A DNA stretch of 64,000 bases from Escherichia coli (GTDB taxonomy: Bacteria; Pseudomonadota; Gammaproteobacteria; Enterobacterales; Enterobacteriaceae), in assembly GCF_044647545.1 (NCBI RefSeq), contig NZ_CP172818.1; one strand, given 5' to 3'. A program made the translations under genes and the position numbers. Positions 29,088 through 29,800 of this stretch are shown in pieces. The notes beneath the pieces are model-generated. The model saw nothing but the letters and a program-made list of their open reading frames with translations, was not told where the DNA came from and did not search any database. Every line of letters starts with the position of its first letter. Position 1 is the stretch's first letter.

Positions 29088-29235
29088 CTATTTAAGACAT
29101 TCCTGCAAATCAGCCAATGTTGCCATCAGTATCATAGAATCGACAGGCGATGGTTCAAACCCCACTCGCAGATAAAACTCACGGGCCTGGTCTGATAACG
29201 CATGGACCAACATTCCCCAAAAACCAATGATTTCA
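29088..29235 (-). pseudogene. Possible C-terminal remnant of a GNAT-like acetyltransferase ORF, upstream part destroyed by the low-complexity block
   Basis: Last ~47 codons of minus-strand ORF 29088..29414 (...[45 protein letters not shown]) are protein-like with an A..FY...GF motif typical of GNAT C-termini; the rest of that ORF (poly-Phe, Gly-rich) is homopolymer-derived nonsense. Confidence 0.3.
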
Positions 29236-29239
29236 CCCC

Positions 29240-29800
29240 CCTGTAGTACTCGTAGACCGGATCTCTCCCCCCCCACACCCCCCCCCTTATAATTTTTTTT
29301 CTTCCCAAAGACCACAAAATACAAAAAGGGGGTTTGTTTTTCGGGAAAATTCCTCCCGCAAATTTCAAACGGGGAAAAAAAGAAAAAAAAAAAAAAATTT
29401 TTTATATATAACAAAAAAAAAAAATGCCTTTTTTTTTTTTTTTTTTTTTTTTCTTTTTTTTCCCCCCAAAAAAAAAAAGGGATGGATTGTTTTTCTTTTT
29501 TTTTTTTTCCCGGGTTTTTTTTTTTTTTTTGGGTAAGGAGGGGGGGGGGGGGGGGTGGAAAAGAATAAAAAAAAAAAAATAATAAATAAAAAAAATAATT
29601 TTAAAAATTTTTTCTTTAATTAGCTCTCTTTCCCTCCCGCTCTCGGCCAGACAAAAAAAAAATTGTGTTTTTTTTTTTTTCCGCTTTTTGGTCGCCTGTT
29701 TTATAATATGGTGTTTTGTGTGTTTTATAAAAAATTATAAAATTTCGCGTGTGTGGGTTATTTTTTTTTCTTTTATTAAAAATATTTTTTTGGGTGTGGA
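29240..29800. other. Anomalous homopolymer-saturated low-complexity block (probable sequencing/assembly artifact)
   Basis: Runs such as C7-C9, A15, T22+, G16 and many A/T runs of 10-15 in succession; flanks are normal sequence; no periodic repeats, IRs or coding signal. Confidence 0.6.

Follow-up and report, generated by a model that had tools for sequence, protein, structure and literature searches.

The 3' end of a TacT-like GNAT toxin gene beside a corrupted sequence block in the flgL-rne interval of an Escherichia coli assembly

The GNAT toxins of type II toxin-antitoxin modules form a well-studied family, and they have been linked to antibiotic persistence in Salmonella. The Salmonella toxin TacT2, which is 46.8% identical to TacT, causes a growth arrest that is neutralised by the antitoxin TacA2, and it acetylates aminoacyl-tRNA in vitro, a modification that is reversed by Pth (PMC5959882, Rycroft et al. 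2018). In the same study, the Y137F form of TacT2 was inactive and its toxicity was abolished, R88 was essential, and a K29/E29 polymorphism was found to modulate activity (PMC5959882). It was later reported that TacT and TacT2 target almost exclusively Gly-tRNA(Gly) in vivo, and that AtaT, AtaT2, ItaT, and KacT, which belong to other clades, have other or broader tRNA specificities (PMC9177977). KacT2 from Klebsiella pneumoniae was placed in clade 2 with 88% identity to TacT2, and the GNAT toxins of E. coli listed as characterised in a 2022 survey were AtaT, AtaT2, and ItaT only (PMC9431474).

We examined the interval between flgL and rne in an E. coli window of 64,000 nucleotides (contig NZ_CP172818.1 of assembly GCF_044647545.1), which is the whole stretch of DNA analysed here. 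A short minus-strand ORF in this interval ends in protein-like sequence and runs upstream into a homopolymer-rich block. We consider it highly probable that the tail of this ORF is genuine and represents the 3' end of a TacT-family toxin gene from a two-gene type II cassette located between flgL and rne, and that the rest of the cassette has been replaced by a sequence artefact at 29217-29795. The preliminary description had pointed to a small GNAT gene or pseudogene at this position. It was further noted here that the gene encodes the toxin of a TacA/TacT-type cassette of two genes, that a whole antitoxin gene was erased along with it, and that the tyrosine of the described "FY" motif is the catalytic residue.

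The features of the interval are as follows, with positions given in the window:

28055-29008, plus strand: flgL, from the ORF listing
29008..29085, plus strand: flgL 3'UTR, equivalent to the K-12 sRNA flgO, with a terminator hairpin at 29050-29078 and a T-run; core-genome sequence and left bound of the cassette
29087..29088, no strand: junction lacking 15 bp (ATGAGACATAACGAA), directly 3' of the toxin stop codon
29088..29216, minus strand: intact 3' end of the tacT-like GNAT toxin gene, codons 123-164 (GMLVH...QECLK) and TAG, equal to L001 1654-1782 of FDAARGOS_497 (WP_000613626.1)
29217..29259, minus strand: slightly damaged toxin codons 109-122; in a base-by-base alignment 6 of 43 bases differ, indels are absent, and the reading frame is preserved
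29260..29795, minus strand: heavily corrupted homopolymer-rich block in place of toxin codons 1-108 and of the complete DUF1778/TacA antitoxin gene (97 codons) with its ribosome-binding site
29796..29860, minus strand: undamaged cassette-specific DNA 5' of the antitoxin gene, which matches cassette-bearing genomes at 100% identity and is lacking in K-12
29835-29806, minus strand: predicted sigma-70-like promoter, with -35 ATGACA at 29835-29830, an 18-nt spacer, and -10 TATAAT at 29811-29806; 11/12 in the promoter scan
29866..29889, minus strand: rne terminator hairpin from the terminator scan; core-genome sequence and right bound of the cassette
29908-33081, minus strand: rne, from the ORF listing

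The flgL-rne cassette and its closest described relatives

The small gene postulated between flgL and rne was found as an annotated GNAT gene in the reference genome FDAARGOS_497 (locus L001). This toxin gene comprises 164 codons (WP_000613626.1) and carries the RefSeq name "GNAT family N-acetyltransferase". An antitoxin gene of 97 codons (WP_024946541.1) lies upstream and overlaps it by 4 nt, and both genes are on the strand opposite flgL. The toxin matched three GNAT families in Pfam, Acetyltransf_7 (7e-9), Acetyltransf_10 (6e-7), and Acetyltransf_1 (7e-6), in line with the initial reading of the tail as a GNAT acetyltransferase C-terminus. The antitoxin matched TacA1 (PF08681, the former DUF1778; E 3e-26) along with the ribbon-helix-helix family RHH_1. 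More than 7,000 homologues of the toxin were found at E<=1e-30, mostly in Enterobacterales. In a side observation, two proteins of 260 aa (P0001 and P0004), each from a single Logan assembly, carried TacA1 and GNAT domains together; they look like antitoxin-toxin fusions and probably arose from frameshifts at the 4-nt overlap.

Among structures in the PDB, the best match of the toxin was 7AK7 chain A (E 8e-76) and that of the antitoxin was 7AK7 chain C over its full length (E 5e-44). We take 7AK7 to be the Salmonella TacA2-TacT2 complex, and the sequence features agree with this identification; no open paper that states it was found. The further matches of the toxin were, in order, 5FVJ and 7AK8, 5ZGN (KacT), and 6AJM and 6GTS, where we assume that 5FVJ and 7AK8 represent TacT and that 6AJM and 6GTS represent AtaT. 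All of the PDB matches listed for the toxin are chains of GNAT-DUF1778-type entries, presumably the TacT, KacT, and AtaT toxins.

The closest comparison was obtained with a Salmonella protein (P0062) that we took to be TacT2, given that its 48% identity to TacT is close to the published 46.8%. P0062 differs from 7AK7 chain A only by M33I and F137Y in the aligned part. The E. coli toxin is 75% identical to P0062 over 161 aa, the antitoxin aligned end to end with that of TacA2-TacT2, and the gene order and both Pfam families are shared between the two species. The functionally important residues K29, R88, and Y137 of TacT2 are all present in the E. coli toxin, and K29 corresponds to the more active S. 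Enteritidis form. However, the Salmonella locus (L003 648-1429) adjoins PAP2 and DsbD-like genes, whereas the E. coli cassette lies between flgL and rne. Judged by sequence, we regard the E. coli pair as a close homologue of TacAT2 and, because of the different chromosomal neighbourhoods, not as a positional orthologue of Salmonella tacAT2.

The Salmonella TacA-TacT pair (TacT1; 5FVJ, 7AK8) belongs to the same fold family and mechanism class and targets Gly-tRNA(Gly) in vivo, but it is more distant from the E. coli toxin (E 4e-44 vs 8e-76). The E. coli systems AtaR-AtaT (6AJM, 6GTS), AtaT2, and ItaT, and KacA-KacT of Klebsiella (5ZGN), likewise combine a GNAT toxin with a DUF1778/RHH antitoxin and act by aminoacyl-tRNA acetylation; however, these are much more distant (E 1e-15 to 4e-20) and belong to other clades and other loci. 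AtaT, AtaT2, and ItaT were considered as the identity of the gene and were rejected as far more distant than TacT2. KacT2 of Klebsiella pneumoniae, a different species, shares the TacT2 clade with the E. coli toxin. No paper and no experiment on an E. coli flgL-rne cassette was found in the literature searched, and the tRNA target of the E. coli TacT2-clade pair can be proposed by analogy.

As an alternative to a toxin, we considered a GNAT with an everyday metabolic or housekeeping role, for example a RimI-like enzyme or a resistance acetyltransferase. The RefSeq name does not go beyond the GNAT family, and an NCBIfam search of the full toxin returned only ArsN2, PRK03624, and RimI, with no model that names a toxin. 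Those matches reached 16-18 bits against cut-offs of 86-125. The gene also shares a 4-nt overlap with a DUF1778/TacA antitoxin gene, both proteins find their best matches in two chains of one complex, and the structural matches listed are uniformly of GNAT-DUF1778 type, which together argue against a housekeeping enzyme and make it extremely improbable. PADLOC defence models gave no match to either the toxin or the antitoxin.

If the pair acts as its Salmonella relatives do, a tacA-like DUF1778/RHH antitoxin gene and then a tacT-like toxin gene would be expressed on the minus strand from the promoter predicted at 29806-29835. By analogy with TacT2 and TacT, the toxin would transfer an acetyl group from acetyl-CoA to the alpha-amino group of charged tRNA, with Gly-tRNA(Gly) as the most likely target. 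The acetylated tRNA would be unusable in elongation, so that translation and growth would stop. The antitoxin would be expected to bind and block the toxin, its RHH domain would repress the operon promoter, and peptidyl-tRNA hydrolase could reverse the damage. We infer the toxicity and the tRNA specificity of the E. coli toxin from its 75% identity to TacT2.

The predicted sigma-70 site, near-consensus and undamaged, lies approximately 32 nt upstream of the expected antitoxin start codon and is presumably the operon promoter. A palindrome with 5-nt arms, TGTAA-N11-TTACA (approximately 29820-29840), overlaps this promoter; it was seen by eye and was not reported by the repeat finder, and it could be a candidate operator. 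Homology to K-12 resumes at 29861, directly after the cassette-specific DNA.

The authentic tail of ORF 29088-29414

The minus-strand ORF at 29088..29414 was found exactly as first described, including the quoted translation, and the ORF listing of the window gave it a length of 108 aa and a TTG start. Alignment to FDAARGOS_497 showed that the 42 codons and TAG stop codon at 29088-29216 are 100% identical to the annotated toxin gene. Over the 14 residues encoded by 29217-29259, the window translation departs from the true GLRVLQAAEVIGIR. Upstream of 29260, the ORF was found to be translated homopolymer-rich junk, as had been supposed for its N-terminal part from the letters alone. Neither the N-terminal half of the ORF nor its spurious TTG "start" is genuine. 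The preliminary description had counted approximately 47 protein-like residues; a real protein tail is indeed present, but the count becomes 42 exact residues followed by approximately 14 that are partly damaged and partly authentic. As it stands, the ORF does not merit a gene call.

The intact tail includes the catalytic Tyr137, which sits in motif B (A-x-x-F-Y-x-x-x-G-F) and is readable within 29088-29216. In 7AK7 this motif aligns to AREFF, as in the inactive Y137F mutant. The acetyl-CoA-binding motif A (Q/R-x-x-G-x-G/A) is represented by QGQGIG at residues 96-101 of the reference toxin, and the same stretch is corrupted in the window.

A Pfam search of the whole 108-aa window ORF returned no match, because only 42 of its residues are authentic, and an NCBIfam search of the 45-aa tail also returned none; the suggested GNAT profile search succeeded with the full-length homologue and failed with the ORF of the window itself. 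The suggested protein search with the tail was successful, and the 45-aa string alone matched residues 123-165 of 7AK7 chain A end to end with the C-terminus (E = 7e-14).

The two empty profile searches could be taken to favour a chance protein-like reading of non-coding DNA, in which the GNAT likeness would be a coincidence of a short motif. However, the tail DNA agrees at every base with the annotated gene of 164 aa, and the identical sequence occurs in 685-686 complete E. coli genomes; the large set of toxin homologues noted above also speaks against this reading. The DNA identity to the annotated gene and the 7AK7 chain A match refute a chance reading, and we give it practically no probability.

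Distribution of the cassette and nature of the corrupted block

Window positions 28950-29950 were compared by megablast with 5,426 complete E. coli genomes. Both flanks matched in all of these genomes, and in a subset of them two annotated genes separate flgL from rne. The 886-bp cassette was found in 686 of the 5,426 genomes (12.6%), in each case once, on the chromosome, at full length, and with 98.4-100% identity, so that the proposed comparison of the flgL-rne interval across E. coli did uncover an intact homologue. No partly decayed cassette was found among 5,425 E. coli genomes, where matches either covered at least 80% of the query (99-100% among the matches listed) or stopped at the flgL terminator. 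The same interval in K-12 represents the empty type; it measures 195 bp, with the sRNA flgO as its sole annotated gene, which agrees with the preliminary description, where K-12 was said to have no annotated gene at this place. That description had left open an unannotated relic or a strain-specific small ORF. The gene proved to be strain-specific, given its presence in a minority of genomes and its absence from K-12, but it is not an unannotated relic; it is an accessory gene that RefSeq annotates wherever it is present, and every copy found is full length.

The closest relatives of the window were ST648-type strains, for example IMT16316 and ECONIH1, all of which carry an intact cassette. 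Identity to the ST648-type strains was 99.9% over 19000-29216, with a 15-bp gap as the sole difference.

The corrupted block stands apart from the rest of the window. Across the low-complexity region at approximately 29200-29800, the fraction of bases equal to the preceding base was 0.50-0.74, compared to a window mean of 0.26 ± 0.05. The block holds 18 of the 38 homopolymer runs of at least 7 found in the window, and no other such block was encountered in the 64 kb. In length, the 579 nt at 29217-29795 take the place of 677 nt of true sequence (L001 1783-2459) and are 98 nt shorter. The ungapped identity of 29664-29788 to the true cassette reached 58% in register, whereas the remaining offsets tested lay at 22-38%, save for a value of 50% at a single offset, which small indels explain. 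Errors were sparse at the left, built up gradually, and ended abruptly at 29795/29796. From 29796 on, identity was again 100%, first through the upstream region of the cassette and then into rne. Rather than foreign DNA, the block is the real cassette in degraded form, smeared into homopolymers and kept in register.

It was anticipated in the preliminary description that the anomalous block had overwritten most of the gene, and the alignment bears this out. The damage removes codons 1-122 of the toxin gene and, with its ribosome-binding site, the complete antitoxin gene, so that approximately three quarters of the former and the whole of the latter cannot be read. An Rfam search of 28800-30100 found no curated family. 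Sub-threshold matches to plant miRNA precursors were seen at 29510-29666 (22-34 bits vs gathering scores of 72-211) and represent noise in the low-complexity block.

A true pseudogene or relic would require the low-complexity block to be real DNA, for example a hypermutated or replaced segment, with a cassette that is dead in the source strain. The window as given does contain no intact toxin or antitoxin ORF, and the loss of 15 bp next to the toxin stop codon, a change private to this copy, may set it apart from the others. Yet each of the 686 copies in complete genomes has its full length and at least 98.4% identity, decayed intermediates are absent, and flanks that are 99.9% identical to intact-cassette strains leave no time for a divergence of approximately 40% to accumulate within 579 nt alone. 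Changes that are biased to long homopolymers and keep the register are the signature of a data artefact and not of mutation, and the gradual onset of errors on the left with the abrupt stop on the right also argues against decay. We regard a genuine relic as very improbable.

We treat the block as an artefact of the sequence or the data, and a biological origin as very unlikely: its flanks hardly differ from those of intact-cassette strains, and the 686 genomes contain no copy in decay. Judging from these relatives, the genes are probably intact in the source organism. On the preferred reading of an artefact, the block hides two genes and is neither an insertion nor a genuine pseudogene, and a toxin-antitoxin operon would go unnoticed in any annotation of this window. 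The feature itself is an already known, annotated accessory toxin-antitoxin module of a well-studied family. Its biological weight is small, and its practical value lies in diagnosing the corrupted stretch.

The missing 15 bp and the empty site

The flgL 3'UTR of the window is nearly identical to flgO as annotated in K-12 at 1140986-1141063, terminator included, and Rfam holds no flgO model. Directly beyond it, the toxin stop codon falls 2 nt past the T-run of the flgL terminator, compared to 17 nt in other cassette-bearing strains. The ATGAGACATAACGAA segment that accounts for this difference was kept in all 686 cassette-bearing complete E. coli genomes. An exact-match scan of metagenome contigs found the deleted junction in 0 contigs, while the full junction, used as a positive control, was found in 8. 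The junction of the window, GC|CTATTT, is also the junction of K-12-type empty sites. The loss of the 15 bp may be either a mutation private to this strain or a further effect of the artefact.

The 68-nt spacer of K-12 (L002 5065-5132) was compared with the 3' end of the toxin gene (window 29088-29165), and a weak collinear similarity with a global score of 7.5 was noted. Shuffles of this alignment, a comparison that was chosen after the fact, scored -6.2 ± 3.2, and 0 of 1,000 reached 7.5. When the K-12 spacer was aligned locally to the cassette, 232 of 500 shuffles reached the score obtained, which is not significant. The empty site may thus be the scar of an old deletion, though the hint is weak.

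The cassette was also encountered between rne and flgL in Escherichia sp. E4385, a member of a cryptic clade (L013 2711-3492), with the same gene arrangement, a toxin that is 96% identical, and a near-identical 16-bp version of the segment missing from the window. The presence of the cassette at the same site in this clade, along with a collinear similarity unmatched by shuffles, may suggest that the flgL-rne site is an ancient presence/absence polymorphism with the cassette as the ancestral state, in which the 68-nt K-12 spacer would be a decayed relic of the toxin 3' end and the junction lacking 15 bp would be a genuine rare allele. We consider this combination doubtful, at roughly the level of a long shot. 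If it were true, gain and loss of the toxin-antitoxin pair would reshape the terminator region shared by flgL/flgO and rne.
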